A DNA stretch of 64,000 nt from Myxococcales bacterium (GCA_049841135.1 JASGHK010000008.1:211272-275271); one strand, 5' to 3'. Shown: positions 41,290 through 61,878, counted from the stretch's first letter. Notes: generated by a model from the letters alone, not told the origin. Program-made: numbers and translations.

Positions 41290-41642
41290 GCGAGCCTCCG
41301 CAGCAGTTCCGCGAGCTCGGCAACGTCGAGCCCCTCGATGCGAAGCCCGCGCGGCCCATGCACGACCAGGCGGCTCGGAACGGGAACAGCAGCGACGGGC
41401 TCGTCTTCCACGACGACTGGAGCGAGCAGCGCGCGTTCCCGCCTGCTCCACCGCCCCAGCGTCAGTGCCCCGAGCCCAAGCCGGTCCGCGGCTGCCTGGG
41501 CGCTCTCGCCCGTCGCCAGCAGGGCGCGATAGCACGCCACCGCTTCCTGTCGCAGTTCCTCAGGCAGGGGCCGCAGTCCGGACGCATGCCCGAACTGCTC
41601 CCGCTGCTGCCTGACCCGCTCCGCCCGTTGCTTCACGTCCAT
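41286..41642 (-). CDS. tnpA: IS66 Orf1 (TnpA) of copy 1
   Basis: 118 aa in the first position of the IS66 operon (MDVKQRAERVRQQREQFGHASGLRPLPEELRQEAVACYRALL...), with helix-turn-helix-like features. Confidence 0.8.
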   Translation of the reverse strand: MDVKQRAERVRQQREQFGHASGLRPLPEELRQEAVACYRALLATGESAQAAADRLGLGALTLGRWSRRERALLAPVVVEDEPVAAVPVPSRLVVHGPRGLRIEGLDVAELAELLRRLA

Positions 41643-41879
41643 CGCGCGTGCCTCCTTGGGAGTTCACGCGCGAATACCGCGGCCTGGCGAAGGCTACGAG
41701 ACGGGGACGGGCGAGGACGTACGATTCGTCCATCGATCGCGGGCGCCCCGTTGGGCCCGCTCCAGGACCTTACGGAGCAGGCTCGTGGGCGCCCAGCCCC
41801 CGTGGGGCGCTTCGTCGCCTGGGCGGGCAGGACCTCACGCCGGACGGCCCCTCCGCGCCGCGCTGCCCAGCTTTCCAAG

Positions 41880-42140
41880 GTGAGCTTGGACGGGCTGATC
41901 TCCGAGGGGAGCCTGCGCGCAGCCGTCCAGTTCCTGGTCCGGCTCGTCGAGACCGCCGGGGCGATCATCATCTTCGCGGGCGCCGCCACGGGCTTCGCCC
42001 GCTTCCTGCTGGTCGCCGCGCTGCGGCGCAACCCCTCGCTGTTCACGCCGGTCCGCCTCGACGTGGGGCGGTTCCTCGCCTTGGGGCTCGAGTTCCAGCT
42101 CGCCTCGGACCTGTTGCGCACGGCCGTGGCCCCTCCTTGA
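41880..42140 (+). pseudogene. DUF1622-like small membrane protein gene, C-terminally truncated by the tandem repeat array
   Basis: From GTG 41880 the sequence reads SLDGLISEGSLRAAVQFLVRLVETAGAIIIFAGAATGFARFLLVAALRRNPSLFTPVRLDVGRFLALGLEFQLASDLLRTAVAPP*. It matches the DUF1622 pattern (…GR.L.LGLEF.LAADI.RT…) but stops abruptly where the first repeat unit begins. Confidence 0.5.
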
Positions 42141-42662
42141 AAATCCGCCCCGCCGCGCCCGCCCGAGACCTGTCACACGCCGAGGACCTGTCCCACGTGG
42201 GACAGGTCTCTCCCTTTGGAAACTCGCCCCGCCGCGCCCGCCCGAGACCTGTCACACGCCGAGGACCTGTCCCACGTGTGCCAGGTCTCTCCCTCGGGAA
42301 ACTCGCCCCGCCGCGCTCGCCCGAGACCTGTCACACGCCGAGACCTGTCACACGCCGAGGACCTGTCACACGCCGAGGACCTGTCCCACGTGGGACAGGT
42401 CTCTCCCTCTGGAAATCGGAAATCCGCCCCGCCGCGCTCGCCCGAGACCTGCCACACGCCGAGGACCTGTCACACGTGTGGCAGGTCTCTCCCTCTGGAA
42501 ATCCGCCCCGCCGCGCTCGCCCGAGACCTGTCACACGCCGAGGACCTGTCACACGTGTGGCAGGTCTCTCCCTCTGGAAATCCGCCCCGCCGCGCTCGCC
42601 CGAGACCTGTCACACGCCGAGGACCTGTCACACGTGTGGCAGGTCTCTCCCTCTGGAAATCC
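42141..42662. repeat. Tandem array of about 79-bp units, 6.1 units on this side, each holding a CACGTG-centred near-perfect palindrome and 18-bp internal sub-repeats
   Basis: The consensus unit is GGAAATCCGCCCCGCCGCGCTCGCCCGAGACCTGTCACACGCCGAGGACCTGTCACACGTGTGGCAGGTCTCTCCCTCT. Units start at 42141, 42218, 42297 (115 bp, with two extra GACCTGTCACACGCCGAG copies), 42411 (86 bp), 42497, 42576 and 42655. The seventh unit is split by IS66 copy 2 after its first 8 bp. Confidence 0.9.
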
Positions 42663-42757
42663 GTACGTCCTCGCCCGTCCCCGTCTGGCGGAGGGCGCCA
42701 GGGGCGCGTATTCGCGCGCGCGTGCGAGGCCGGCGCCGCGCGCCGGCGGCGTAGTGG

Positions 42758-44269
42758 TCAGGGCTGGGGCACGGCGGCCGCGTGCTCGTGCGGCAGCGGC
42801 ATTGGCTGGTGCGTGAGGCGCGCGATGACCGCAGCCTTGAGGTAGGCGCGCGGGTCTACGCGGTGGAGCTTGCAGGTCTCCATCAGCGTGTACATCAGCG
42901 CCGCCACCTCAGCGCCGCGCTCGGATCGAGAGCCGTAGTGGTTCTTGCGCCCGAGCACCACGCCGCGCAGCGAGCGTTCGGCGAAGTTGTTGTCGAGCGG
43001 CACGAGCGGGTCAGCCAGGAAGACCGTCAGCCCCTTCCACTGGCCCTGCATGTACTTGATCGCCTCGGCCAGGCCGCTCGACGGCAGCACCATCGCGAGC
43101 GTCCGGTTTCCCCACCGCTCGATGTCCTCGATGACCTGGGTGGACTTCTCCGCGCGCAGACGGGCGCGCTGAGCCAGGCCCTCGGCGCCATTGGAAGCGA
43201 CCTCGCCCTCGATTCGATAGAGCTCTGCGATCAGTCCCAGGATCTCCGAGACCGGCTGCGGAAAGTTCTTCTCGACCTCCAGGAATTTTCGGCGCGCATG
43301 CGGCCAGCAAGAAGCGAGCCGGAAGCTGGGGCCGTCACGCGACTGCGCCAAGCTCGAGTAGACGCTGTAGCCGTCAGCCATCACCGTGCCGCGATAGCCG
43401 GCCAGCAGCTCGCGGGCCACCTGCGCGCCGCGCGAGGGGTCGATGTGGTGGTAGACCGCGCGGCTCGAGCAGATGGTCCAGTCGTACCACCACTCGCTGC
43501 CCTTCTCGCCGCGCGCAGCCATCTTGCGCCAGCGCGTCTCGTCGGCGTGGACCACGGCGTCTGTCAGCACCAGCGCCCGCAGCCGCGGTCGTAGCGGCTC
43601 GAGGACCGCCGCCAGCGCCTCGAGGTAGTCCCACAGCGTCTGGGAGTCGGTCACCAGTCCGTCGCGCTTCATGGCGCGGCACTGCCGCTCCAGCGGCTGG
43701 TGGTCGGTGTACTTGTCCACGGCGATGCCGATGGCGAAGTCGATGGAGTAGCGCGCCCCCTCGAAGAGCTTGAGCGGGCCGGGCGCGGTGACGATGCACT
43801 CGTTGCAGGAGCAGCGGTACTTCTGCCGCAGGTGCTTGTGCAGCTCGAAGCGGCGGTGGACGACAGTGATCTCCTCGGAGGGCTCAAACTCGCCCTTCAT
43901 CGGATTGAGCGTCCCGCCGCACTTTTCACACTGGAGCTGGTCCTCGCCGAGCGCCCAGATGCGCTCGATGGACGGCAGGGCCGGCTGCTCCCGGCGGCCG
44001 TGACCCGTCTGCGGCTTTTTCGCCGCCGAGGTCGGCTCGCCGCGGCGCTCCGACGACGAGGGCGCGAAGAGCTTCTCGTTCTGGAGCGCGAGCTGCCGCT
44101 GCAGCTTCTCGAGCTCGAGCTGCAGCGCCTTGGTGTCGCCGCCCTTGAGCGCGGTCAGCTCGGCGAGCACCTCGGCGATGCGCCGGTGCAGGTGCCGGTT
44201 CTCGGCCTCGAGGAGTATCGCCGCTTGCCGCAGCACCTCGATGTTCTTCTCGCGCTCAAGGGAGACCAA
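42758..44269 (-). CDS. tnpC: IS66-family transposase (TnpC) of copy 2
   Basis: The 503-aa product is identical to that of 39355..40866. Confidence 0.9.
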   Translation of the reverse strand: MVSLEREKNIEVLRQAAILLEAENRHLHRRIAEVLAELTALKGGDTKALQLELEKLQRQLALQNEKLFAPSSSERRGEPTSAAKKPQTGHGRREQPALPSIERIWALGEDQLQCEKCGGTLNPMKGEFEPSEEITVVHRRFELHKHLRQKYRCSCNECIVTAPGPLKLFEGARYSIDFAIGIAVDKYTDHQPLERQCRAMKRDGLVTDSQTLWDYLEALAAVLEPLRPRLRALVLTDAVVHADETRWRKMAARGEKGSEWWYDWTICSSRAVYHHIDPSRGAQVARELLAGYRGTVMADGYSVYSSLAQSRDGPSFRLASCWPHARRKFLEVEKNFPQPVSEILGLIAELYRIEGEVASNGAEGLAQRARLRAEKSTQVIEDIERWGNRTLAMVLPSSGLAEAIKYMQGQWKGLTVFLADPLVPLDNNFAERSLRGVVLGRKNHYGSRSERGAEVAALMYTLMETCKLHRVDPRAYLKAAVIARLTHQPMPLPHEHAAAVPQP

Positions 44270-44302
44270 AGCGCGACCAAGCTAACGCATGAGGGGCGAA
44301 GG

Positions 44303-44692
44303 TCAACCGCTCGCCGGGGAAGCTTTCGCCTGCGCCGCGAGCGTGAACGGCGCCGGGCTCAGCGCGACCCTGCCGACCAGCTCGCTGCCCTCCAGGAAGA
44401 GCGCCAGCTCGCTCGTCGTCATCCGCATCACCCCGTCTGGCCCCAGCCGTTTCCACGGAGCAGCGAAGAGCTGGTTCTCGAGCCGCTTGGCGAAGATGCA
44501 CAGGCCGGTGCCGTCCCAAAAGAGCACCTTTGCCCGCCGTCGGTTCTTGCTCACGAACAGGAACATGTCGCCCGAAAGCGCGTCGCGCTTGAGCTGCAGC
44601 GAGACGAGCGCGTGCAGGCTGTCGAACGACTTGCGCATGTCCGTCGGCGTTCCGCAGGCGAACACCGAGATTTGCCGAGTCGAGCCGATCAC
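44303..44692 (-). CDS. tnpB: IS66 Orf2 (TnpB) of copy 2
   Basis: It is identical in position and sequence to 40900..41289, offset by 3403 bp. Confidence 0.85.
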   Translation of the reverse strand: MIGSTRQISVFACGTPTDMRKSFDSLHALVSLQLKRDALSGDMFLFVSKNRRRAKVLFWDGTGLCIFAKRLENQLFAAPWKRLGPDGVMRMTTSELALFLEGSELVGRVALSPAPFTLAAQAKASPASG

Positions 44693-45045
44693 GCGAGCCT
44701 CCGCAGCAGTTCCGCGAGCTCGGCAACGTCGAGCCCCTCGATGCGAAGCCCGCGCGGCCCATGCACGACCAGGCGGCTCGGAACGGGAACAGCAGCGACG
44801 GGCTCGTCTTCCACGACGACTGGAGCGAGCAGCGCGCGTTCCCGCCTGCTCCACCGCCCCAGCGTCAGTGCCCCGAGCCCAAGCCGGTCCGCGGCTGCCT
44901 GGGCGCTCTCGCCCGTCGCCAGCAGGGCGCGATAGCACGCCACCGCTTCCTGTCGCAGTTCCTCAGGCAGGGGCCGCAGTCCGGACGCATGCCCGAACTG
45001 CTCCCGCTGCTGCCTGACCCGCTCCGCCCGTTGCTTCACGTCCAT
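44689..45045 (-). CDS. tnpA: IS66 Orf1 (TnpA) of copy 2
   Basis: It is identical to 41286..41642. Confidence 0.8.
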   Translation of the reverse strand: MDVKQRAERVRQQREQFGHASGLRPLPEELRQEAVACYRALLATGESAQAAADRLGLGALTLGRWSRRERALLAPVVVEDEPVAAVPVPSRLVVHGPRGLRIEGLDVAELAELLRRLA

Positions 45046-45125
45046 CGCGCGTGCCTCCTTGGGAGTTCACGCGCGAATACCGCGGCCTGGCGAAGGCTAC
45101 GAGACGGGGACGGGCGAGGACGTAC

Positions 45126-45208
45126 GGAAATCCGCCCCGCCGCGCTCGCCCGAGACCTGTCACACGCCGAGGACCTGGCACACGTGTGCCAGGTCCCTCC
45201 CTCTGGAA
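45126..45208. repeat. Distal remainder of the tandem-array unit interrupted by IS66 copy 2
   Basis: The sequence reads ggaaatccgccccgccgcgctcgcccgagacctgtcacacgccgaggacctggcacacgtgtgccaggtccctccctctggaa. It continues the unit that starts at 42655. Confidence 0.85.
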
Positions 45209-47729: not shown

Positions 47730-49405
47730 GCCGCGCTCGGCCCCTGGAGCGGCAGCTCGACCGTGAAAGTGGTGAAGCGGTCGGGCACGCTCTCGGCGTG
47801 GATGGTGCCGCCCTGGCTCTCCACGAGGTGGCGCGCGATGTACAGCCCGAGCCCCAGGCCGCCGTAGGAGCGCGAGGACACCGCGCGGGAGAACTTCTCG
47901 AAGACGTGCGGCAGGTCCTGCGAGGCGATGCCGATGCCGTGGTCGGTCACCTGGAGGCGGGCGGTGGTGCCCGCGGGGTCGACGCCGATCTCGATGGGCC
48001 GGCCGGGCCCGAACTTGACCGCGTTGGAGAGGATGCTGGTGACGACGTGGTCGAGCTTGGCGGCGTCCCAGCGGCCCGGCAGGGTCGCGGGCGCGCGCAG
48101 GCGGATCTCGCAGCCGGCGTCGGAGAAGGCCGGCCGCAGGCGCTCGGCGACGGCGCGCACGATGGCCGCCAGGTCCGTCTCCCCCAGCTGCAGCCCGAGG
48201 TTGTCGAGGTGGATGCGCCCCACGGTGAGCATCTGGTCGACCAGCCCCGCCAGGCGCGTGCACTCGCGCTCCAGGAGCGCCCAGATGGCGTCCTGCCGCG
48301 CCGCGGGCAGGTTCGAGGCCCCGCGGCGCAGCCCCTGCTGGAGCGTGAGCAGCAGCGAGGTCACCGGCGTGCGCAGCTCGTGCGAGGCGACGGAGAGGAA
48401 CTCGTCGCGCAGGCGCACCGCCTCCTGGGCCTGCTCGAAGAGCCGCGCGTTCTCCACCGCCAGCGCGGCGCGCCGGGCGACCTCCTCGGCCAGCCCGACG
48501 CGGTGCTCGTCGAAGACGAAGTCCGGCCGGCTGGAGACGAAGGTGATGGCCCCCAGCGCGCTGCCGTGCAAGACGAGCGGGACCGCGATCAGGGAGCGCG
48601 CCCCCAGGCGCCCGATGATCTCCTTGATCCTCGCGTCGGCGCCGTGGGCGACCAGCACCTCCTCGTTCAGCTCCGACAGCATGACCGTCCGCTTGCCCTC
48701 CACCGCCCGGGCGGCCGGATACCGCCCCGCGACATGGCGCGCGGACAGCTCCTCGAGCAGCCACGCCTTGCCAGGGTCCGCGTGGCTGCCGGCGACACGG
48801 CGCAGCTGCGGGCCCTCGACCACGTCGATGACGCACCAGTCCGCCAGGAAAGGGATGGCCAGGCGAGCGAGGCGGCCGAGCGTGCCGTGGTAGTCCAGCG
48901 ACTCGGTCAGGAGCCGCGAGGCCTCGGCCAGGAAGGCGGCGGCCGCCGCCGCGCGCTGGCTGTCCGCGGCGAAGGCCTTGCTCCTGCCCAGCTCGTGCAA
49001 GAGCGTCCCGGTCACCCGGGTGTAGTCGGCGCGGGTGTTCTGCAGGTCGTGCCTCAGGCGGTCCGCCAGCCAGTCCATCTCCACGCCCTTCTCCCGGAGC
49101 GCTCCCGCCGTCTCGATCGCCCCCAGGCAGGCCTCGAGCAGGCTGCGCAGCGACGGCAGCGCCTCGGTCGGCGCGGTCAGGTGCCAGAAGAGCCGGCCGA
49201 GCCGGGTCTGCGTCACCTGCGGCGCCGGGGTGATGAGCACGCCCTGGAGGCGGTCGCGCGCGTCGGGAAGGACCTGGAAGACCTCCTGCGCGCTCTGCGC
49301 GTGGAGCGCCAGCGGACCGCCGCCCAGCAGGTGCCTCTTGGTCACGGCGCAGGCCTCGAAGCCCTCGGGCACCGGCCGGACCGAGCTCAGGAAGCGCAGG
49401 CTCAT
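47726..49405 (-). CDS. Cytoplasmic GAF-domain sensor histidine kinase
   Basis: A GAF region is followed by HisKA (LRDEFLSVASHELRTPVTSL) and HATPase_c (VTDHGIGIASQDLPHVFEKFSRA...GGLGLGLYIARHLVESQGGTIHAES). ATG 49405 overlaps the stop of the FIST gene. Confidence 0.85.
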   Translation of the reverse strand: MSLRFLSSVRPVPEGFEACAVTKRHLLGGGPLALHAQSAQEVFQVLPDARDRLQGVLITPAPQVTQTRLGRLFWHLTAPTEALPSLRSLLEACLGAIETAGALREKGVEMDWLADRLRHDLQNTRADYTRVTGTLLHELGRSKAFAADSQRAAAAAAFLAEASRLLTESLDYHGTLGRLARLAIPFLADWCVIDVVEGPQLRRVAGSHADPGKAWLLEELSARHVAGRYPAARAVEGKRTVMLSELNEEVLVAHGADARIKEIIGRLGARSLIAVPLVLHGSALGAITFVSSRPDFVFDEHRVGLAEEVARRAALAVENARLFEQAQEAVRLRDEFLSVASHELRTPVTSLLLTLQQGLRRGASNLPAARQDAIWALLERECTRLAGLVDQMLTVGRIHLDNLGLQLGETDLAAIVRAVAERLRPAFSDAGCEIRLRAPATLPGRWDAAKLDHVVTSILSNAVKFGPGRPIEIGVDPAGTTARLQVTDHGIGIASQDLPHVFEKFSRAVSSRSYGGLGLGLYIARHLVESQGGTIHAESVPDRFTTFTVELPLQGPSAA

Positions 49406-50565
49406 CCGCGCTCCCCGAGCAGCAGCAGCACGTAGGTCATGTTGTGGGCGTAGGTCGGGGTGTAGCGGCCGTTCTCCTTGAGGGGGCCGAACTCCGCGAA
49501 GGACGGGAAGCCGACGAGCGGCAGGCCCCGCGGGAAGACGCTCGAGAGGGCGCGCACCTCGTGGTCGATCTGGTCGCCCAGCAGCCACTTGCGGCCCGCG
49601 CAGCTGACCACCAGCGCCGCCGCCGGCTGGAAGTCCAGGGTGCGCGCGCTCTCGGCGATGGCGTAGACCTCACGGACCAGGTCCTCCGGCTCGGCCACGC
49701 AGACCCCCACCCGCTGCCCCTCGGCGATGCCCCCGTACAGGGCCAGCCCGCCGCCGGGCTTGTCGAACTCGGGGATCACCGAGCGCAGCCGCCGGAGCCC
49801 CGGGTGGACGCCGTCGAGGATGGCCAGCGACACGATGCCCCGGTCGGTCCGCAGCGCCGGCTTGCCCGTCTCGCGCTCGACGAAGTCCATCGCCGGCAGG
49901 TCGTCGATGCGCGCCAGGCGGGTCCCCGCGGCCTCGGTGACCCGCCCCGGCGAGCCGATGGTGCGCAGCGCGTTGCCGACCGTGATGTCGAAGGCGAGGT
50001 CCCCGTAGGCCCCCAGCAGCACCAGCGCGTCCTCGAGCACCTCGTCTCCCGAGTACACGAAGCAGCGCTGCAGGCGGTCGTCGTCCGCGGCCAGGCCCCC
50101 GACCAGCGGCACGCGGGTGCCCAGGCCCAGCGCCTCTTCGATCCTCGAGCTGTCGGTCCGGAAGTCGGAGGCCATGAAGAGCAGGGCCGGCTCGCCGCCC
50201 GGCCCCGACTCGCGCAGCCGCTGCAGGCACTGGCGGGTCGCGCCCACGGGGTCGGCCCCCACGCCCCGCGCCTGCGCGGTGACCCAGCGCACCCGGCCCT
50301 CCGTGCTCACCCCCAGCGCCGCGGCGCCGTAGTGGCTGACCCGCGCCGACTCGTAGACGCCGTCGCCGCTGTTGCCCACGACGACCACGCGCTCGTCCTC
50401 CAGCGCGTCGTGCAGGCCCGCGAGCAGGTCCGAGTTCTCGCCGCAGTAGTGGATGCTGGTGAAGAGGAACGCCACCTCGGGGCTCACCGGCTTGAGCGCC
50501 TCGCCGAGGCTGACCCCGGCGCGGTACGGGTCCGACGTGGAGGTGCTGGCGGACAAGGCGAGCAT
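49402..50565 (-). CDS. FIST-domain sensory protein (FIST_N + FIST_C)
   Basis: The 387-aa protein shows the typical FIST signatures (…ALLFMASDFR…; …VGFPSFAEFGP…) and no transmembrane helices. It is the first gene of the FIST / histidine kinase / response regulator operon. Confidence 0.7.
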   Translation of the reverse strand: MLALSASTSTSDPYRAGVSLGEALKPVSPEVAFLFTSIHYCGENSDLLAGLHDALEDERVVVVGNSGDGVYESARVSHYGAAALGVSTEGRVRWVTAQARGVGADPVGATRQCLQRLRESGPGGEPALLFMASDFRTDSSRIEEALGLGTRVPLVGGLAADDDRLQRCFVYSGDEVLEDALVLLGAYGDLAFDITVGNALRTIGSPGRVTEAAGTRLARIDDLPAMDFVERETGKPALRTDRGIVSLAILDGVHPGLRRLRSVIPEFDKPGGGLALYGGIAEGQRVGVCVAEPEDLVREVYAIAESARTLDFQPAAALVVSCAGRKWLLGDQIDHEVRALSSVFPRGLPLVGFPSFAEFGPLKENGRYTPTYAHNMTYVLLLLGERG

Positions 50566-52823: not shown

Positions 52824-53723
52824 TCAGTGGAAAGCGATTTGGAAGGTCTTGTTGGCATCGACGGTCTGCCCGTCCAGGCAGTAGGACGCCACGCAGGTTC
52901 CGGTCGGGTCGTTCAGCTCGCGGGCGCCGGACCAGGCCTCGCCGTAGAGCACGTAGCTCTGGCCCTGCGGAATCAGGGCGAACTTGGGGAAGACGCACTC
53001 GCTGTCGACGCAGGAGCTGAAGTCGAAGGCATAGGCCGAGCGGAAGACCTGGTTGACCTTCGGGTCGTCGTCGATGCGGCTGCGCGTCGTCGCGTCCTTG
53101 CAGTTGCCCAGGGCCTGCAACTGCGAGCAGTTGATCGTCGAGCCGTCGGGGCGGCGGGAGTCGACGAAGCGCACCACCGCCGACTGGGGCTTGGAGCTGC
53201 CCGTGAGCGTCCCGCCGACGACCAGCCGGATGCCGACCTGGGAGGTGATGGCGTCGCCGCGATAGGTCGCCGCGCCCGGCGCCTTGCAGTAGCCGCCCAG
53301 GCACACGTCGGTGACCATCTCGTCCACGATGTCCCCGCAGATGCTCTGCCGGGAACAAGGCTTGGGCGGCGGCGGCGCGCAGGCGCTCGCCGTGGCGCAG
53401 TCCGAGTCGGCGCAGTCGGTCATTCCGTCGGCGTCGGAGTCCACCGCGTCGGTGCAGTTGGTCTCGTGCGTGTCCGCGGTGCAGACCCCGGAGACGCAGG
53501 TCTTGCCCGTCGCGCAGAAGCCGCAGTGGACGTCCCGGTCCTGGCCGCAGCGGTCGGTCGCCTGGATGCGCTGGCAGTCCTTGCCTTGCGCCTGGCACAG
53601 CTCTTCGGCGGACTCGGGTTCGCACAGCGCGGCGTCGGGCGAGCCCGTGCTCTCGGTGCTGCAGGCGGCGAAGGCGGCGACGAGAAGAAGGAGGACGAGG
53701 CGCGAGGTGCCGCGGCTGGGCAT
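52824..53723 (-). CDS. Cys-rich secreted lipoprotein with no recognised domain
   Basis: The signal and lipobox are MPSRGTSRLVLLLLVAAFAACS. The protein has many paired cysteines (CEPESAEELCQAQGKDCQRIQATDRCGQDRDVHCGFCATGKTCVSGVC...). Confidence 0.6.
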   Translation of the reverse strand: MPSRGTSRLVLLLLVAAFAACSTESTGSPDAALCEPESAEELCQAQGKDCQRIQATDRCGQDRDVHCGFCATGKTCVSGVCTADTHETNCTDAVDSDADGMTDCADSDCATASACAPPPPKPCSRQSICGDIVDEMVTDVCLGGYCKAPGAATYRGDAITSQVGIRLVVGGTLTGSSKPQSAVVRFVDSRRPDGSTINCSQLQALGNCKDATTRSRIDDDPKVNQVFRSAYAFDFSSCVDSECVFPKFALIPQGQSYVLYGEAWSGARELNDPTGTCVASYCLDGQTVDANKTFQIAFH

Positions 53724-53888
53724 AAACAATCTCCGATGCGTTCCCCCGGTGGCCCGCCCCATTGTGCCAAAAGAGCGCTCTGCCGTTCATTCCTTCTTTG
53801 AGAGGCGATTGGGAATGGCCGCGCGGCGCAGATCACGAGCGCTGGCGCTCCCGCCGCGCGAGCCCGTCGATTCCGAGGAAGACCTTGC

Positions 53889-54593
53889 CTACGGCCGCGC
53901 CTTGGCCGGCACCGCCACCTCGTCGGCCAGCACCACCTTCACGTCCCAGAGGCAGTCCTTCTCCTCGCTGGCCTTGGGCTCGAGCTTGCCGATCCAGGGG
54001 AGCTGCGCCAGGTCCTCGGCGACGAGCTTGGCGCCCTTGAGCGCGAACTCCTTCTGCCGGGTGCAGTACTCGATGCGGCTCGGGCCGGCGTCCACGGTCA
54101 GCTTCGGGCCGAGCCACACCACCGTCACGTCCCTCTTTCGGTTCTGGTCGATGAGGAAGTCGAGCAGGTAGTGCAGGCTGCGCGGCTTGACGGCCTTGCC
54201 CTGCAGGATCACGCCGATCCGCTTCTCGCAGCCGCCGAGGCGGCAGTAGTACGCGCCCGACTCGAGCATCGCGCCCGGGGCGTCGGACTTGACCACCATC
54301 GCCCGCTCGGCGGTGACCTGCAGCTTCGCCTGGTAGTCCTTCTTCAGTCCCTTGCAGGCGGGGCCGGTGCAGCCGGTGGCCTTCACCGAGATCGTGTCCC
54401 CGTCGAGCGTCCAGGTGCCGGCGACGTGCGTCTTGCCGGCCTTCTCGACCAGCTCCGAGCGGTACCGGTTCTCCGAGTCGAAGGCCACGTAGTGCTCCGC
54501 GTTGCCGATCTCCGCGCCGTCGACGAAGTCCGTGACGGTCGGCGTGGGCACGGCCGCGAGCAGGACGGCGGCAAGCAGGTGCGAGGCGTTCAT
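53889..54593 (-). CDS. Secreted hypothetical protein
   Basis: ATG 54593 gives MNASHLLAAVLLAAVPTPTV (signal peptide). The rest is a clean ORF with protein-like composition. Confidence 0.55.
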   Translation of the reverse strand: MNASHLLAAVLLAAVPTPTVTDFVDGAEIGNAEHYVAFDSENRYRSELVEKAGKTHVAGTWTLDGDTISVKATGCTGPACKGLKKDYQAKLQVTAERAMVVKSDAPGAMLESGAYYCRLGGCEKRIGVILQGKAVKPRSLHYLLDFLIDQNRKRDVTVVWLGPKLTVDAGPSRIEYCTRQKEFALKGAKLVAEDLAQLPWIGKLEPKASEEKDCLWDVKVVLADEVAVPAKARP

Positions 54594-54682
54594 GGGCTTC
54601 CCCCAGGATCGAGACGAGGTCCCGATAGGACCACGCCGCGCGCGGGGCCGACAAGCCGGCTGGCTGGCTGAAAGCAGCCGGG

Positions 54683-57600
54683 TTGCGCGGGTCCTTCTGG
54701 CGCCGGACACTGCCGCTGGCGGTCGGGCCAGACGCGCACCCTTCGGGCCCCGGAGACCTCGTGACGCTCTCTCAGACCCTGGCCAGCTACCTGCCGCGGA
54801 TGGTCGTCGACTTCGTCGCGCGCCGCCCGCGAACCGAGGCGGCCGACGCAGCCGAGCAGCTCTTCCCGGCGGCGGTGATGCTCGCCGACGTCTCCGGTTT
54901 CACCCGGCTCGCCGAGCGCCTGCAACAGCAGGGTCCGGCCGGGGCCGAGTCGCTCACCCGCATCCTCAACGCCTACTTCACCCCGCTCATCGAGCGGATC
55001 CACGCCCGCGGCGGCGACGTCGTGAAGTTCGCCGGCGACGCGATGATGGTGCTCTGGCCGGCGACGAGCCCCGCGGACCTCGGCCCCTGCGTGCGCGCCG
55101 CCGCGCTCTGCGGCCTGGAGCTGCAGGACTGGTCGCGGCACGGCCAGACGGCGCCCGCGGACGAGCAGCTCTCGCTCAAGGTGTCCATCAGCGCGGGGAC
55201 CATGCGCCTGTGCCACGTCGGCGGCGTCGCCGGCCGCTGGGAGCTGCTGGTCACCGGCGAGCCGCTCGCCGCGCTCAACCATGTGACGCACGGCGCCCAG
55301 CCCGGCCGCGTGCTGGTCACCCTGGACGTCGCGCAGCGGCTCCCCGGCGCGCACCTGGCCAAGAGCGGCGAAGGGGACTCCTCCTTCCTCGACGCCCTGC
55401 CGGACCCGGTCGCCGCCTCCTCGCCGGCGACGATCCCGGATGCTGCCCCGGCCGGCATCGAGGACGGCCTGCGCGCCTACCTCCCCAGGGCCGTGCTCGA
55501 CCGCCTGGACCAGGCGAGCTTCCTGTCCGAGCTGCGCACCGCGACGGTGATGTTCGTCAACTTCCCCAACGCCACCTACCAGACGCCGCTCGCCCGCGCG
55601 CACCTCATCGCCCAGCTGCTGCAATCCACGCTCGACAAGCACGAGGGCACGCTCAACAAGCTCTCGGTCGACGAGAAGGGCGTCTCGATGGTGGCGGCCT
55701 TCGGCCTGCCGCCCCGGGTCCACGAGGACGATCCGGCGCGGGCGGTGGCGACCGCGCTCTCGCTGCACGAGGAGCTGGCCCGGCTGTCCGTCGTGCACGC
55801 CATCGGGCTGACCACCGGCCGCGTCTTCTCGGGCGTCGTCGGCAGCCCCGAGCGGCGCGAATACACCGTCATGGGCGACTCGGTGAACCTGGCCGCGCGC
55901 CTGATGCAGGCCGCCAAGGGCGACGTCCTGGCGGACGAGGCGACCGCGTCCGCAGCCCGCTCGCGCGCCACCTTCGAGGCCGTCCCGCCGCTCACCGTCA
56001 AGGGCAAGTCCGAGCCCATCCCCGCCTTCCGGCCGACCGCGCTCGTCCAGCGCTCGGTCGCCGCAGCCGCTGCCGCCTCGGGGGCCCCGACGATGATTGG
56101 CCGGGAAGCGGAGCGCGCCCGGGCGGCCGCCGCGCTCTCGGCGCTCGAGGACGCCTCCGCCCGCTCCGGCCTGCTCCTCGTCGAAGGCGAGGCCGGCATC
56201 GGCAAGTCGGTCTTCGTCGCGCAGATCCGCGCCGACGCCGGGCAACGGGGCCTGCGCACCGTCGTCGGCTGGGGCGACGCCGTGGAGTCCGCCAGCCCCT
56301 ACTTCGCCTTCCGCGCCGCCCTCAAGGACCTCGCCGGACCGGGTTCGCTCGACGAGCGCCGGGCGCGACTGCTCGACCTGCTCGACGGCGACTCCGCCGC
56401 GCTCGCCCTGGCGCCGCTGCTCAACGCCGTCGTGCCCCTGGGCCTGCCGGAGACGCCGTTCATCACCGAGATGGCGGGCGCCCTGCGCGCCGACAACACC
56501 CGCGATCTGCTCCTGCGCCTGTTCGCAGGCGCCGCGCGGCGGGCCCGGACGGTCGTCTTGCTGGAGGATGCGCACTGGCTCGACTCCGCCTCGCTGGCGC
56601 TGGTGCTCGCGCTCCACCGCCAAGTCCGGCCGCTCCTCTTGATCGTCTCCACCCGTCCAGTGCCCGACCCCGCGCCGCCCGAGCTTCCGCGCGCTCGCCG
56701 ACGCCGCCGGGCCGAGCCGCCTCGTGCTCGAGCCGCTCTCTGGCGAGCAGACGACCAGCCTCGTCTGCCGCCGCCTGGGCGTCGACGCGCTGCCGCCCCA
56801 GGCCGCCCGCCTCATCCAGGAGCGCGCCGCCGGCCACCCGTTCTTCAGCGAGGAGCTGGCCTTCGCGCTTCGCGACTCGGGGGCGTTGAAGATCGCCGGG
56901 CGCCGCTGCGAGAGCTCGCCGGCGGAGCCGACGCGCTCCTGGGAGCGGGCCTGCCCGAGACCGTGCAGGGCATCATCTCCAGCCGCGTCGATCGCCTGCC
57001 GCCCGCCGAGCAGCTGACCCTGAAGGCCGCCAGCGTCGTGGGCCGGGTCTTCGGCCTGGACGTGCTGGAGGCCATCCACCCCCAGCAGCCCGAGCGCGCG
57101 CCCCTCTCCGATCAGCTCTCCCGGCTCGAGAAGCTGGACCTGACCCCGCTCGACTCCCCGGTGCCGGTGCCGACCTACCTCTTCAAGCACGTGGTCACGC
57201 ACCAGGTGGTCTACGACTTGATGCTCTTCTCGCAGCGGGCCGAGCTGCACGGCCAGGCAGCGCGCTGGTACGAGGAGAACCGCGCGCAGGAGCTGGCCGC
57301 ACACGCTCCGCTGCTCGCCCACCACTGGAGCCGGGCCGGCGACCCGGCGAAGACGCTGGGCTACCTGGAGAAGGCGGGCGAGCAGGCGCTGCAGAGCGGC
57401 GCCTACGCCGAGGCGCGGCGCTTCCTGGCCGAGGCCGACCGGCTCGACCGCGAGAACCCATCCCTGCTCGCAGGTCGCGAGGCCAGCCTCCGCCGCGCAC
57501 GCCGGCAGCGCCTGCGGGGAGACGCCGAGCTGTGCCTGGGCAACCTCGCCGAGAGCCGCGCGCACCTGCTCGAGTCCGTCCGGCTCCTGGGCTCGCCGCT

Positions 57601-58867
57601 CCCCGCTTCGCGGCTGAGGTGGGCGATGGCGCTGGCCGGCCATGCCCTGCGCCAGCTCGCCCAGCGCCTGCTGCGCCGCCCGCCCGAGGCCGACGCCTTC
57701 CGGCGCGAGTGCGCCAACGAGGCGGCGCAGGCCTATGAGCGGCTGGGGCCGGTCTGCATCTTCTTCAACCTCCCGCCCGACGCCTTGTTCTGCTCGCTGG
57801 CGGGGACCAACCTCGCCGGCCGCGTCGGGCCCTCGGGGGTGCTCGCCAAGGCCTTCGCCAACTTCGCCATCGGCCTCTCGGTCGCTCCGCTGCCCGCCCT
57901 GGCCGAGCGCTATGCGCGCCTTGCGCTCTCCCAGCTCGGTCCGGCGACCCCGGTGGGCGCCGAGGCCTGGGTCCAGGAGATGGTCGCCCTGTTCTGCACC
58001 GGCGCCGGCCGCTGGGACGAGGCGGTCGCAGGCTTCCGCCGGGGCGCGCAGCTGCACCAGACCCTGGGGGATCGGCGTCGCCAGGAGGAGTGCGAGCTGA
58101 TCCTCGCCGTCATCGGCCACCTGCGCGGCGACCTCGCGGGCTCGCTGGCGAGTGCCCGGGAGGTGGCCGAGACCGCCGGCCGGCGCGAGGACCGGCACAT
58201 GCTGGGCGGCAGCGGCGCCATGGTCGGCCTCTCGCTGCACCGCCTGGGCCGGTTCGACGAGGCTGCGGCCACGGCCGAGCAGGCCGCCGGCAACGCCCGG
58301 CAGGTCCGCGCCCGCCCCGAGCTCATCTGGGCGCTGGGGGTGCAGTCCGCGGCGGAGCTGGCCCGCGGCGAACGGGAGCGGGCCCTCGCCGCCGCCCAGG
58401 AGGCGGTGCGGACCATGGCCGGCCTGATGCCCACCGCGGCCTGGGTCCTCGAGGGCTACGCCTGCACCGCCGAGACCCTGCTCCGCCTGGCCTCGGAGCG
58501 ACCGGAGCTCGACGGCCTCGCCCGCGAGGCGTTCGCCGGCGTCGAGCGGTGCGCCAGGAGCTTCCCGTGGCTGCGGGCGCGCCGGGCCTACCTGGAGGGG
58601 CTTCGGGCGGACCTCGCCGGGGACCGGGAGAAGGGCACTCGCCACCACCTCCGGGCGGTCACCGCGGCCCAGGCGCTGGGGAGCCTCGTCGACGAGGCCC
58701 TGGCGCTGCAGGCCATCGTCCTCCTCCCCCGGCCGGAGAGGCCGCTCGCCGCCCCGCTCGCCGCCCCGGACCGGCGGGAGCGCCTGCGCGAGATCGAGCG
58801 GCGCACCGGCCTCGTCCTCCCCTTGGACCCGGCCTTGGCAGGGTCTCGGGACCAGGCGATCTCCTGA
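54683..58867 (+). CDS. Multidomain signalling protein: two tandem class-III cyclase homology domains, a STAND/AAA ATPase and a long TPR-like C-terminus. Two compensating 1-nt frameshifts lie near 56660-56690 and 56895-56915
   Basis: Cyclase homology domain 1 reads LADVSGFTRLAE...GGDVVKFAGDAMMVLWP. Cyclase homology domain 2 reads ATVMFVNFPN...AAFGLPP...GLTTGRVFSGVVGSPERREYTVMGDSVNLAARLM. The Walker A motif is GEAGIGKSVFV. Between 56690 and 56910 the conserved STAND segment RALADAAGPSRLVLEPLSGEQTTSLVCRRLG...AAGHPFFSEELAFALRDSGAL lies in the +1 frame (ORF 56724..57017) while the main frame reads nonsense (PELPRARRRRRAEPPRARAALW...). The main frame then resumes, followed by about 600 aa of helical repeats. 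Confidence 0.8.
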   Translation: MRGSFWRRTLPLAVGPDAHPSGPGDLVTLSQTLASYLPRMVVDFVARRPRTEAADAAEQLFPAAVMLADVSGFTRLAERLQQQGPAGAESLTRILNAYFTPLIERIHARGGDVVKFAGDAMMVLWPATSPADLGPCVRAAALCGLELQDWSRHGQTAPADEQLSLKVSISAGTMRLCHVGGVAGRWELLVTGEPLAALNHVTHGAQPGRVLVTLDVAQRLPGAHLAKSGEGDSSFLDALPDPVAASSPATIPDAAPAGIEDGLRAYLPRAVLDRLDQASFLSELRTATVMFVNFPNATYQTPLARAHLIAQLLQSTLDKHEGTLNKLSVDEKGVSMVAAFGLPPRVHEDDPARAVATALSLHEELARLSVVHAIGLTTGRVFSGVVGSPERREYTVMGDSVNLAARLMQAAKGDVLADEATASAARSRATFEAVPPLTVKGKSEPIPAFRPTALVQRSVAAAAAASGAPTMIGREAERARAAAALSALEDASARSGLLLVEGEAGIGKSVFVAQIRADAGQRGLRTVVGWGDAVESASPYFAFRAALKDLAGPGSLDERRARLLDLLDGDSAALALAPLLNAVVPLGLPETPFITEMAGALRADNTRDLLLRLFAGAARRARTVVLLEDAHWLDSASLALVLALHRQVRPLLLIVSTRPVPDPAPPELPRARRRRRAEPPRARAALWRADDQPRLPPPGRRRAAAPGRPPHPGARRRPPVLQRGAGLRASRLGGVEDRRAPLRELAGGADALLGAGLPETVQGIISSRVDRLPPAEQLTLKAASVVGRVFGLDVLEAIHPQQPERAPLSDQLSRLEKLDLTPLDSPVPVPTYLFKHVVTHQVVYDLMLFSQRAELHGQAARWYEENRAQELAAHAPLLAHHWSRAGDPAKTLGYLEKAGEQALQSGAYAEARRFLAEADRLDRENPSLLAGREASLRRARRQRLRGDAELCLGNLAESRAHLLESVRLLGSPLPASRLRWAMALAGHALRQLAQRLLRRPPEADAFRRECANEAAQAYERLGPVCIFFNLPPDALFCSLAGTNLAGRVGPSGVLAKAFANFAIGLSVAPLPALAERYARLALSQLGPATPVGAEAWVQEMVALFCTGAGRWDEAVAGFRRGAQLHQTLGDRRRQEECELILAVIGHLRGDLAGSLASAREVAETAGRREDRHMLGGSGAMVGLSLHRLGRFDEAAATAEQAAGNARQVRARPELIWALGVQSAAELARGERERALAAAQEAVRTMAGLMPTAAWVLEGYACTAETLLRLASERPELDGLAREAFAGVERCARSFPWLRARRAYLEGLRADLAGDREKGTRHHLRAVTAAQALGSLVDEALALQAIVLLPRPERPLAAPLAAPDRRERLREIERRTGLVLPLDPALAGSRDQAIS

Positions 58868-58974
58868 CCCGTGGGCGTTCGCCCCCGAACGTGATATTTG
58901 CCTGTAGCTTCTAAGCTCTTCGACGATCCCGGCGGCGCATCGCCCGTCCGGGTGCCACACGAGGGAAGCGGACC

Positions 58975-61878
58975 ATGACCAGACTCTCGGTGCTCCAAGC
59001 GGCGTTTGCCCTGTCGCTTTCGCTGTCCGTCGCCGGTTGCACCGGTGCGGGCGAGTCGCCCAACGTGCTCAGCGCACCTCTCCCCGCCGCGGCGGCGCAG
59101 CCCGTCGGCACCCGGTCCTTCGCGCTCGCCGCCAACGGCGAGGCGTGTACCGCCGGCGCCGACTGCACCAGCGACTTCTGCGTGGACGGTGTCTGCTGCA
59201 ACGAAGCCTGCGGCGGCGGCGCCACCGACGACTGCCAGGCCTGCAGCGTCGCCGCGGGCGCTGCGGCCGACGGCACCTGCAGCGCGCGGGCGGCGACCAC
59301 CGTGTGCCGGGCCTCGGCGGGCGACTGCGACCTCGCCGAGACCTGCGACGGCACCGCCGTGCTCTGCCCGGCCGACCAGTTCCAGCCCGCGAGCCACGAG
59401 TGCCGGGGCGCGCAGGCCAGCGACCTGTGCGACCTGCCCGAGACCTGCTCCGGCACCAGCGCGGCCTGCCCGGCCGACCAGGTGGTGAGCGCCGGCACCT
59501 CCTGCCGCCCCGCCGCCGACCTCTGCGACCTCCCCGAGGCCTGCGACGGGACCTCCAAGGCCTGCCCCGCCGACCAGGTGACGAGCGCCGGCACCTCCTG
59601 CCGCCCCGCCGCCGACGTCTGCGACCTCCCCGAGGCCTGCGACGGAACCGCCAAGGCCTGCCCCGCGGATCGGTTCCAGCCTGCGAGCCACGTGTGCCGG
59701 AGCGCACAGGCCGGCGACCTGTGCGACCAGGCCGAGACCTGCACCGGCACCAGCGCGGCCTGCCCGGCCGACCTGGTGAAGAGCGCCGGCGTCTCCTGCC
59801 GCGCCGCCGCCGGCCTCTGCAATCTCCCCGAGGCCTGCGACGGGACCTCCAAGGCCTGCCCCGCCGACGTGCTGCAGGCCTCCGGCTTCGAGTGCCGCGC
59901 GGCCCTGGCGACCAACCTGTGCGACCTGGCCGAGGTCTGCGACGGAGCCAGCGCCGCCTGCCCTGCCGACCTGGTGAAGCCCGCCAATACCGTCTGCCGC
60001 GCCGCCGCCGGCGACTGCGACGTCGCCGAGAAGTGCGACGGCACCGCCAAGGCCTGCCCGGTCGAGAAGTTCGTGGCCTCGACCGTCACCTGCCGCCCCT
60101 CGTACGGGGACTGCGACGTGGGGGAGAACTGCCCCGGCAACGCCGCCGACTGCCCGGCCGACAAGATCAAGGTCAAGGGCAGCGTCTGCCGCGCGGCCCT
60201 GCCCACCGAGCCGTGCGACGCGCCCGAGACCTGCGACGGCGTGGGCATCACCTGCCCGGCGGATCTCGTGAAGCCCGCCAACACCGTCTGCCGCGCCGCG
60301 GTGACCGGCGGCTGCGACGTGGCCGAGAACTGCGACGGCACCGCCAAGACCTGCCCCACCGACGCCTTCGCCACGGTCAACACCCTCTGCCGCCCCGCCG
60401 CCGGCGACTGCGACGTGCCCGAGGTCTGCACCGGGACCACCGCCACCTGCCCGACCCCCGACGTCAAGAAGCCGTCGGGCACCGAGTGCCGGGCCTCGCA
60501 GGGCCCGTGCGACCCGGCGGAGGCGTGCACCGGGAGCTCCGCCGCCTGCCCGGCGGACAAGCTCTCGCCGGGGAGCACCGTCTGCCACCCGGCCAACGGC
60601 GCCTGCGACGCGGTGGAGAACTGCACCGGCACCTCGGCGGCCTGCCCCGCCGACCTGCCCAAGGCCCAGGGGCTCCCCTGCCGCGCCGCCGCGGGCCCGT
60701 GCGACCTCGTCGAGACCTGCGACGGCGTGGTCCGGGAGTGCCCCGCCGACGTCCTCCGCTCCGCGGGCTTCGAGTGCCGGGCGGCCTTGGGCATCTGCGA
60801 CGTCGCCGAGCAGTGCACCGGCGCCTCGGCGCAGTGCCCGGCCAACGTGGTCGAAGCCCAGGGCAAACCCTGCCGTCCCAAGGCCGGCGACTGCGACTTC
60901 GCCGAGGAGTGCGACGGCGTCAGCGGCGCCTGCCCGGCCGACCGGATGGTGGCCCTGGGCACCGAGTGCCGCGCGGCCGACGGCGACTGCGACTTCGCCG
61001 AGTACTGCACCGGCACCAGCAACGAATGCCCGGCCGATGCGGTGAAGAACAGCACCATGGTGTGCCGCGTCGCGGCCGGCCCGTGCGACCTGCCCGACCA
61101 CTGCGACGGCCAGGTCAAGACCTGCCCCGCCGACGCCCTGGCCGGCCCCGAGGTCGTCTGCCGCGCCGCCGGCGGCGACTGCGACCTGGCCGAGAGCTGC
61201 ACCGGCACCTCCGCCGACTGCCCGACCGACGAGGTCAAGCCGTCGACGGTCGAGTGCCGTGCCTCCTCCGGCGTGTGCGACCTCGCCGAGTCGTGCGACG
61301 GCAAGTCGGCGCGCTGCCCGTCCAACGCCCTCAAGCCCACCGGCCAAGGCTGCCCCGGCGACGGCACCTGCCAGCAGGGCCACTGCGATCACCTGCCCGT
61401 CTCCACCGACGACGAGTACAGCACCCTGGCCGGCGAGGCCCTCGTGGTCGACGCGGCGCAGGGCCTGCTCTCCAACGACGCCGACGCGGACAGCGACGCG
61501 CTCAGCGTGGTGCTGGAGACCGAGCCCGGGCACGGCCGCCTGAGCCTGAAGCAGGACGGCTCCTTCCGCTACGAGCCGGACCACGCCTTCCTGGGCACGG
61601 AGACCTTCACCTACCGGGCGAGCGACGGCTTCGGCAAGGGCGCGGTGGCGACGGTGACCATCACCGTGAAGCCTCAGCCGCTGGACGCCAGCGTCGAGCC
61701 GGTCGACGCCGCGATGCCGGTGGACGCCTCCGCTCCGGACGCGGCGATCGCGGGCGCGGACGCGGGCGAGCCGCGCTTCTCCGGCGGCTGCAGCTGCGCG
61801 AGCGCGGCGGCGGGCCCGGCGATGGGCATCCTCCTGCTGGCCTTCGCCCTGCCGATGATCGGCCGGCGCCGGAAGTAA
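58975..61878 (+). CDS. Giant Cys-rich tandem-repeat lipoprotein of 967 aa: about 45 copies of a 20-aa CRxAxGxCDxxExCxGxSxxCPAD module, an Ig/cadherin-like domain and a MYXO-CTERM tail
   Basis: A GAGGGAAG ribosome-binding site lies upstream and the signal and lipobox are MTRLSVLQAAFALSLSLSVAGC. The repeats include CRASAGDCDLAETCDGTAVLCPADQF, CRPAADLCDLPEACDGTSKACPADQV and similar. A beta-sandwich domain follows (…LSNDADADSDALSVVLETEPGHGRLSLKQDGSFRYEP…TFTYRASDG…). The tail ends FSGGCSCASAAAGPAMGILLLAFALPMIGRRRK. Confidence 0.85.
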   Translation: MTRLSVLQAAFALSLSLSVAGCTGAGESPNVLSAPLPAAAAQPVGTRSFALAANGEACTAGADCTSDFCVDGVCCNEACGGGATDDCQACSVAAGAAADGTCSARAATTVCRASAGDCDLAETCDGTAVLCPADQFQPASHECRGAQASDLCDLPETCSGTSAACPADQVVSAGTSCRPAADLCDLPEACDGTSKACPADQVTSAGTSCRPAADVCDLPEACDGTAKACPADRFQPASHVCRSAQAGDLCDQAETCTGTSAACPADLVKSAGVSCRAAAGLCNLPEACDGTSKACPADVLQASGFECRAALATNLCDLAEVCDGASAACPADLVKPANTVCRAAAGDCDVAEKCDGTAKACPVEKFVASTVTCRPSYGDCDVGENCPGNAADCPADKIKVKGSVCRAALPTEPCDAPETCDGVGITCPADLVKPANTVCRAAVTGGCDVAENCDGTAKTCPTDAFATVNTLCRPAAGDCDVPEVCTGTTATCPTPDVKKPSGTECRASQGPCDPAEACTGSSAACPADKLSPGSTVCHPANGACDAVENCTGTSAACPADLPKAQGLPCRAAAGPCDLVETCDGVVRECPADVLRSAGFECRAALGICDVAEQCTGASAQCPANVVEAQGKPCRPKAGDCDFAEECDGVSGACPADRMVALGTECRAADGDCDFAEYCTGTSNECPADAVKNSTMVCRVAAGPCDLPDHCDGQVKTCPADALAGPEVVCRAAGGDCDLAESCTGTSADCPTDEVKPSTVECRASSGVCDLAESCDGKSARCPSNALKPTGQGCPGDGTCQQGHCDHLPVSTDDEYSTLAGEALVVDAAQGLLSNDADADSDALSVVLETEPGHGRLSLKQDGSFRYEPDHAFLGTETFTYRASDGFGKGAVATVTITVKPQPLDASVEPVDAAMPVDASAPDAAIAGADAGEPRFSGGCSCASAAAGPAMGILLLAFALPMIGRRRK

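Follow-up and report, generated by a model that had tools for sequence, protein, structure and literature searches.

In the full-length form of mammalian soluble adenylyl cyclase (sAC, ADCY10), two cyclase homology domains, C1 and C2, precede an autoinhibitory region and a predicted, P-loop-bearing STAND domain. Compared with this form, the truncated C1-C2 isoform has an about 3-fold higher activity (PMC12802110). The title of Kobayashi, Buck & Levin 2004 (Dev Genes Evol 214:503) states that the functional domain structure of sAC is conserved in bacteria, and the paper is summarised as reporting a bicarbonate-activated sAC-like cyclase of Chloroflexus aurantiacus (PMC11006738), an enzyme classed as class IIIb (PMC2613629). 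The present analysis deals with a cyclase gene on a stretch of 64,000 nucleotides (nt) from a Myxococcales metagenome-assembled genome (MAG; GCA_049841135.1, JASGHK010000008.1:211272-275271). This whole stretch, with a G+C content of about 72%, is called the window. The nearest known relative of the cyclase is mammalian sAC, and the gene is an ordinary myxobacterial member of a very large, already recognised sAC-type family. Quite probably, its product is a cytosolic sAC/ADCY10-type adenylyl cyclase with a regulatory half composed of a STAND NTPase and a tetratricopeptide repeat (TPR)-like array. Its parts are given below, with positions counted from the first nucleotide of the window and amino acids (aa) numbered from TTG 54683, the start of the open reading frame (ORF).

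54761..58867, + strand: complete sAC-type cyclase gene (deposited product of 1368 aa)
54842..55396, + strand: cyclase homology domain 1, C1-like (about aa 54-238), matching PF00211 and sAC C1
55454..56047, + strand: cyclase homology domain 2, C2-like (about aa 258-455), matching Pfam at aa 287-444 and sAC C2
56096..57187, + strand: STAND module (P-loop NTPase, helical domain and winged helix), from AAA_16, weak NACHT/nSTAND and Foldseek matches
56684..56914, + strand: out-of-frame segment, with an extra C at 56684 and an extra AG at 56913-56914
57188..58864, + strand: TPR-like alpha-solenoid of about 560 aa and about 26 helices, from AlphaFold2 and Foldseek

Two cyclase homology domains in one chain, as proposed in the original prediction, were recovered with Pfam as well as with sequences from the Protein Data Bank (PDB). 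In the whole ORF, Guanylate_cyc (PF00211) matches two stretches, with an overall score of 60.9 bits (E 1.5e-16). Scanned alone, domain 1 reaches 32.8 bits against a cut-off of 21.9 (E 6.5e-8). Domain 2 is recognised by cyclase models too, with its best Guanylate_cyc stretch at aa 287-444 and a match to the C2 domain of sAC. The four motifs on which the prediction was built are found where it had placed them, namely LADVSGFT at aa 67, KFAGDAMM at aa 115, MFVNFPN at aa 290 and GDSVNLAARLM at aa 398, and its assignment of the catalytic residues holds. Domain 1 has kept both metal-binding aspartates (D69 and D119), together with K115, the equivalent of Lys95 of sAC. It lacks the transition-state Asn/Arg pair, with A196 and H200 at these positions, both of which vary across the family. 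In domain 2, the first metal-Asp position is occupied by N293, and the base-recognition pair K326 and T395 (the class IIIb threonine) as well as the transition-state pair N402 and R406 are present. Lys and Thr at the base-reading positions are the signature of class IIIb adenylyl cyclases (PMC2613629; PMC3383692; PMC12250328), a signature which has been linked to responsiveness to inorganic carbon (PMC2613629, PMC3383692).

The conservation of these residues was counted in an alignment of the query with 119 homologues and the sAC fragments. In this alignment, D47, K95 and D99 of sAC correspond to D69, K115 and D119, and K334, T405, N412 and R416 of sAC correspond to K326, T395, N402 and R406. 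The roles of Asp47, Asp99 and Thr405 in sAC have been described (PMC12250328). Both aspartates of domain 1 are found in all homologues (119/119 each), and the Lys95 equivalent in 114 of the 119. For domain 2, the alignment holds Asn at the N293 position in 95/119, K326 in 103/119, T395 in 111/119, Asn at the N402 position in 116/119 and Arg at the R406 position in 119/119. The degenerate positions, i.e. the Asn/Arg pair of C1 and the first Asp of C2, are degenerate family-wide. Judged by these residues, the complementary catalytic loss is conserved and would leave exactly one complete active site. The C1/C2-type pseudo-heterodimer with one active site, as originally suggested, agrees with the residue alignment, with this census and with the structural comparison below.

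Both domains find their best match among PDB sequences (phmmer) in the corresponding domain of human sAC: domain 1 in C1 (residues 38-175, E 2e-13) and domain 2 in C2 (residues 262-460, E 7e-22, over 190 aa). The next matches are single-domain bacterial cyclases (E 1e-8 to 1e-6), and the domains of membrane cyclases are far weaker (VC1, E 0.02; IIC2, E 0.18). The same correspondence is obtained with BLASTP, in which domain 1 scores 71 bits to sAC C1 versus 15 bits to sAC C2, and domain 2 scores 98 bits to sAC C2 versus 25 bits to sAC C1. Domain 1 against domain 2 gives 20 bits, which is near noise, as are the cross-matches. Since each domain matches sAC by position, the duplication and the division of labour between the domains are older than the split between the bacterial lineage and the eukaryotic enzyme. 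The thousands of bacterial proteins built in this way also indicate that the C1/C2 duplication occurred in bacteria.

An AlphaFold2 model of aa 27-480, built with 63 homologues, reached a predicted local distance difference test score (pLDDT) of 90.2 and a predicted template modelling score (pTM) of 0.90. When this model of the pair was compared with the PDB using Foldseek, the best 24 matches were all human sAC catalytic cores (8co7, 5iv4 and others), with both domains covered. The superposition spans about 460 columns, with template modelling (TM) scores of 0.82/0.80, a root-mean-square deviation of 3.3-3.7 Å, 24% identity and an E-value of 6e-34. The soluble domains of the membrane cyclase AC9 superpose with a TM score of 0.70 and 16% identity. 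In view of the superposition on the sAC cores, the two domains are predicted to be arranged as in the sAC pseudo-heterodimer, and the model therefore predicts an intramolecular C1-C2 pseudo-heterodimer fold.

The second half of the protein consists of a STAND ATPase and a helical array, in line with the original prediction. Pfam places AAA_16 at aa 472-654 (E 7.6e-18), a match which, like those of Guanylate_cyc, lies far outside chance, and NACHT and nSTAND match weakly. The Walker A motif GEAGIGKS (aa 502-509) is encoded at 56186-56209, and the Walker B motif LLEDAHW (aa 626-632) at 56558-56578. Together with the GxP motif of the helical domain, both are near-invariant in the family, as seen in 63 homologues. 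For the C-terminal 937 aa, in the repaired frame discussed below, AlphaFold2 gave a model with a pLDDT of 92.3 and a pTM of 0.90, in which an alpha/beta NTPase is followed by a helical and winged-helix region and then by a solenoid of about 26 helices. The top PDB matches of this half in Foldseek are the STAND-TPR protein 6mfv, Apaf-1, CED-4, MalT (8bob) and Orc1/Cdc6. The solenoid is all-helical over about 560 aa with a pLDDT above 90. The helical array is thus real. Foldseek also matches it to the TPR proteins LGN, OGT and APC and to the TPR sensor of 6mfv. In the query itself, Pfam TPR_12 remains below threshold (21 bits versus 30), and homologues carry TPR_12 (with significant scores), TPR_2 and TPR_MalT. 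This solenoid is presumed to be a sensor or an autoinhibitory domain. No helix-turn-helix (HTH) family was found by Pfam at E ≤ 0.1, neither in the whole protein nor in its C-terminal 937 aa, in agreement with the predicted lack of a DNA-binding domain. None of the hydrophobic 19-residue windows exceeds 1.62, and no membrane-span-like segment is seen in the protein.

The original prediction considered this kind of cyclase uncommon in bacteria and proposed a search for homologues with the same fusion. The search revealed a very large family instead. Among 1.84 billion cluster representatives, a search for the tandem domains returned at least 3,537 proteins (50%-identity clusters) at E ≤ 1e-30. 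In nearly all of the 150 best matches, the N-terminal part covers both cyclase domains, and the majority have 1250-1450 aa. A scan of one genome per species identified at least 555 loci with the tandem-domain architecture. These include cultured Archangium and Cystobacter (Myxococcota), Herpetosiphon aurantiacus and many Chloroflexaceae and Anaerolineales (Chloroflexota), Microcoleus, Sericytochromatia, Planctomycetota, Verrucomicrobiota, Acidobacteriota and Gammaproteobacteria. Some genomes encode several paralogues on one contig, and the length of the family members is constant at about 1350 aa. Outside the window, the tandem cyclase pair matched a predicted protein of 5195 aa (P0153) in four stretches. 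With a length of 4 x about 1300 aa, it may stem from read-through across four tandem paralogues or be a genuine giant fusion.

All-against-all clustering of the ORFs in 81 loci showed no conserved neighbours beyond close relatives. The few recurrent neighbour clusters (ABC transporter, P450, VIT/rubrerythrin and DUF1786) are unrelated. The large family, the constant length and the lack of a conserved neighbour fit a self-contained sensor-effector, and this is how the cyclase protein appears to work.

Based on these results, a mechanism can be proposed. The two cyclase domains would pair within one chain, with a single composite active site lying between them. In this site, domain 1 would supply the two aspartates holding two metal ions, and domain 2 would read the adenine with its Lys and Thr and stabilise the transition state with its Asn and Arg, making ATP the probable substrate. 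The second, pseudo-symmetric site is degenerate and might be free to serve as a regulatory pocket. Such a pocket binds bicarbonate in sAC and forskolin in the membrane cyclases. The STAND NTPase and the TPR solenoid would most likely, by analogy, form a ligand-gated, nucleotide-dependent switch. A resting, ADP-bound state would keep the activity of the cyclase low, and binding of a signal might lead to nucleotide exchange and to oligomerisation or opening, so that more cyclic AMP (cAMP) is made.

Several observations weigh against parts of this picture. Human sAC is activated by bicarbonate, which binds between Lys95 and Arg176 and thereby frees Asp99 (PMC12250328). Lys95 has its equivalent in K115, but Arg176 is replaced by Asn199 in the query; among the bacterial homologues this position is mostly Gly or Ser, with Arg in only 6 of 119. 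Therefore, a mammalian-style activation by bicarbonate is not to be assumed. The Lys95/Arg176 pair is a mammalian regulatory site which is not conserved in all animal sACs (PMC12250328, PMC12867704), and in a sea-urchin sAC that carries Asn there, activity is controlled by pH, not bicarbonate (PMC12867704). Because the class IIIb threonine is present, a sensitivity to inorganic carbon or pH is nevertheless possible, as far as the sequence goes. With respect to the switch, purified sAC showed no effect of nucleotides through its P-loop (PMC12802110), and the switch model therefore rests on the analogy with MalT and Apaf-1. Finally, the deposited gene encodes 76 aa of the STAND module in the wrong frame.

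Regarding this reading frame, the ORF 54683..58867 does exist as first reported (1394 codons on the + strand, from the ORF list and the translation), with TTG 54683 as the most upstream start possible and the stop at 58867. However, GTG 54761 is the likely true start of the gene, because a GGAG lies five nt 5' of it (54752-54755), the N-termini of homologues align to V27, and an identical protein at NCBI begins there. The latter, 'MAG: adenylate/guanylate cyclase domain-containing protein [Myxococcales bacterium]', is 1368 aa long, comes from a 1.65-Mb contig and is 100% identical to the product. An antisense ORF (54590..58960, 1456 codons) was rejected as a high-GC shadow: its translation is of low complexity and all homology lies on the + strand. 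No paralogues of the cyclase gene were found within the window.

The original prediction missed a compensated double frameshift within the STAND module, at 56684-56914. As deposited, residues 668-743 (LPRARRRRRAEPP...) form a stretch of 76 aa, with 23 Arg and 14 Pro, which matches nothing, and the public NCBI protein includes this Arg/Pro-rich segment, a point to be noted in its annotation. The true frame encodes FRALADAAG...GHPFFSEELAFALRD...GRRCE. Read in this other frame, the same DNA gives FRALADAAGPSRLVLEPLSGEQTTSLVCRRLGVDALPPQAARLIQERAAGHPFFSEELAFALRDSGALKIAGRRCE, which is 62% identical (E 1e-30) to the next homologue, P0002. The GxP motif of the STAND module (GHPFF, 56832-56846) is found in the repaired frame and lost in the deposited one. 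In addition, the phase of the G+C content at third codon positions (GC3) shifts near 56690 and shifts back near 56915. DNA alignments to the P0002 locus and to L002, a Myxococcales MAG which is the closest relative (82.5% nucleotide identity), place the +1 and +2 indels, and both relatives are frame-intact. Repair of the two indels, which are 229 nt apart and jointly restore the frame, gives a protein of 1393 aa without stops. In a count of indels against L002, made to assess the assembly, short compensating gap pairs proved to be alignment noise at 78% identity, and the 56684/56913 pair was the only one to span a long distance. Because the GxP motif belongs to the STAND helical domain and lies in the out-of-frame segment, the STAND switch of the deposited protein would be damaged.

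The indels may be real and the gene recently damaged, leaving a scrambled STAND helical domain and an enzyme that is deregulated or unstable, an explanation that deserves serious attention even if it is considered somewhat doubtful. The indels are absent from both relatives, neither of them lies within a homopolymer run, and, 229 nt apart, they jointly restore the frame. Moreover, no other long-range shift of frame occurs in the roughly 11 kb that could be compared with L002, which argues against a generally error-ridden assembly. On the other hand, the segment shows no decay. In its correct frame it is 81% identical to L002, equal to its flanks, its GC3 in the original frame is still 0.97, and the gene nowhere evolves faster than in L002. 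The indels thus stem either from the assembly or from a very recent mutation, and an assembly or polishing artefact fits these data equally well.

Other functions were weighed for the intact protein as well. A cyclase acting on another nucleotide, i.e. a guanylyl cyclase or a producer of cyclic CMP or cyclic UMP as in Pycsar, would be a surprising outcome. Class III cyclases can change their substrate with few changes, and Dictyostelium is said to have a guanylyl cyclase as its sAC homologue. However, Lys326 and Thr395 are the adenine-specific pair of class IIIb and not the Glu/Cys of guanylyl cyclases. The weak PADLOC matches of PycC to domain 1 (E 6e-15 to 2e-4) reflect a similarity general to class III and fall far below the match to sAC, and no Pycsar effector gene adjoins the cyclase. 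Pycsar was accordingly rejected, as the best PycC match (E 5.7e-15) is restricted to domain 1 and the neighbours have no PADLOC matches and are not conserved. It is similarly improbable that the protein is an immune or conflict sensor whose STAND-TPR half detects a phage or foreign protein, upon which the cyclase raises a cAMP alarm. STAND NTPases with TPR sensors do include the antiviral Avs proteins, a faint match to Avs2 was obtained (E 0.007, PADLOC), and the family is enriched in filamentous and social bacteria (Myxococcota, Chloroflexota and Cyanobacteria), lineages in which STAND-based conflict systems are common (PMC7159879). However, neither an effector nor a conserved neighbour was detected in the 81 loci, the length and sequence of the family are well conserved among the homologues examined, the tandem paralogues of some genomes are typical of signalling expansions, and the eukaryotic homologue sAC is a metabolic sensor. 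Since PADLOC gave generic PycC and faint Avs2 matches only, a defence system was not retained as the main explanation. Slightly broader, and also regarded as very doubtful, is the idea that the STAND-TPR half is an immune-like danger sensor, as in Avs and NLR proteins, which would raise cAMP as an alarm upon a foreign or stress molecule, and from which sAC would have descended. If true, the sAC C-terminus would be what is left of a ligand receptor.

A catalytically dead, nucleotide-binding protein is highly improbable. The class III cyclase-like ATP-binding protein of P. aeruginosa (PDB 6yii) is among the structural matches (TM 0.56), but active sAC matches much better (TM 0.82), and the residues for one complete active site are all present and conserved family-wide. 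Three further identities were rejected. A kinase/cyclase fusion of the TOMM system (TIGR03903) reached 102.5 bits versus a cut-off of 705.75, its match is restricted to aa 755-917 of the STAND region, and Pfam detects no kinase domain in the query. For a membrane cyclase of the ADCY1-9 type, no membrane-span-like segment is available and the VC1 and IIC2 matches remain at E 0.02-0.2. For a LuxR regulator of the Rv0386/MalT type, no LuxR/GerE HTH was found with Pfam at E ≤ 0.1. An sAC-type adenylyl cyclase thus remains the preferred explanation.

The surroundings of the gene in the window are as follows.

39355..40878, - strand: IS66-family transposase, 507 aa
42758..44281, - strand: IS66-family transposase, 507 aa
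47726..49669, - strand: GAF-domain histidine kinase, adjoining the FIST-domain sensor
49402..50565, - strand: FIST-domain sensor protein, forming a signalling pair with the GAF kinase near the cyclase
52824..53762 and 53889..54710, - strand: two upstream divergent genes without Pfam matches
58975-61878, + strand: cysteine-rich repeat surface protein, 967 aa, with Disintegrin, cadherin-like/Big_9 and MYXO-CTERM matches

The first gene of the divergent pair (52824..53762) has a sub-threshold match to an 'acidic double-disulfide repeat', and in the P0002 locus (L001) a 44%-identical homologue is the immediate upstream neighbour of the cyclase. This may reflect synteny within the lineage rather than a functional link. 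Further upstream, the - strand encodes a TetR regulator and a short-chain dehydrogenase, followed by the FIST protein and the GAF histidine kinase. Directly downstream, the product of 58975-61878 looks like a myxobacterial cysteine-rich repeat surface protein based on its 20 Pfam Disintegrin matches (E 3e-112), a cadherin-like/Big_9 region at aa 807-899 and a C-terminal MYXO-CTERM signal. The next gene, on the - strand, belongs to the radical SAM family. The gene order around the cyclase, including the adjoining surface protein, is shared only with L002. The two transposase genes lie within direct copies of a 2465-nt element (39259-41723 and 42662-45126) which are 99.8% identical. Tandem repeats of about 80 nt (85-96% identical) fill 42135-42663 between these IS66 copies, with one more repeat unit at 45126-45208, directly after the second copy.

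When compared to described systems, the protein shares a MalT-type STAND NTPase and a TPR-like sensor with MalT and with the mycobacterial proteins Rv0386, Rv1358 and Rv2488c (cyclase-AAA_16-TPR-LuxR). Rv0386 has one cyclase domain and MalT has none, and both carry a LuxR-type HTH at their C-terminus. A cyclase with one domain is active only as a dimer. The query, by contrast, has two complementary cyclase domains and no HTH, and would not need to dimerise. Rv0386 and MalT, to which the original prediction likened the architecture, are thus less close in architecture than sAC. The likeness drawn to the mammalian C1/C2 cyclases stands in principle: as in the query, the membrane adenylyl cyclases (ADCY1-9) form a pseudo-heterodimer with the metal-binding Asp residues in C1 and Lys, Asn and Arg in C2. 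These enzymes read the base with Asp, not Thr, span the membrane twelve times and are regulated by Gs-alpha and forskolin. None of these features is seen in the query, and sAC is much closer to it than the membrane cyclases. Among bacteria, Chloroflexaceae genomes found in the scan carry members of the same family which are 37-42% identical to the query over the cyclase pair and have Gly at the Arg176 position, versus Asn in the query. The Chloroflexus enzymes studied by Kobayashi and colleagues reportedly combine two catalytic domains with an sAC-like C-terminus.

The comparison with sAC itself goes furthest. Like the query, it has an N-terminal tandem of C1 and C2 in one soluble chain, with a domain-for-domain correspondence; it also has Asn at the first metal position of C2 and shares every catalytic residue with the query, plus Lys95, at an identity of 24% over the catalytic core. 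The full-length isoform (sACfl) is a protein of 187 kDa with a predicted haem-binding domain (PMC12802110), and the query is 1368 aa long. A biochemical study from 2025 did not identify any regulator acting specifically on sACfl (PMC12802110). With thousands of members, confident models of both halves and highly conserved Walker and GxP motifs, the bacterial family could offer tractable systems for learning what the switch senses and how the cyclase is controlled. Like the query, sACfl is described as having a long C-terminal region with a predicted STAND P-loop NTPase (PMC12802110), and the bacterial proteins might be a model for the unexplained C-terminus of full-length sAC.

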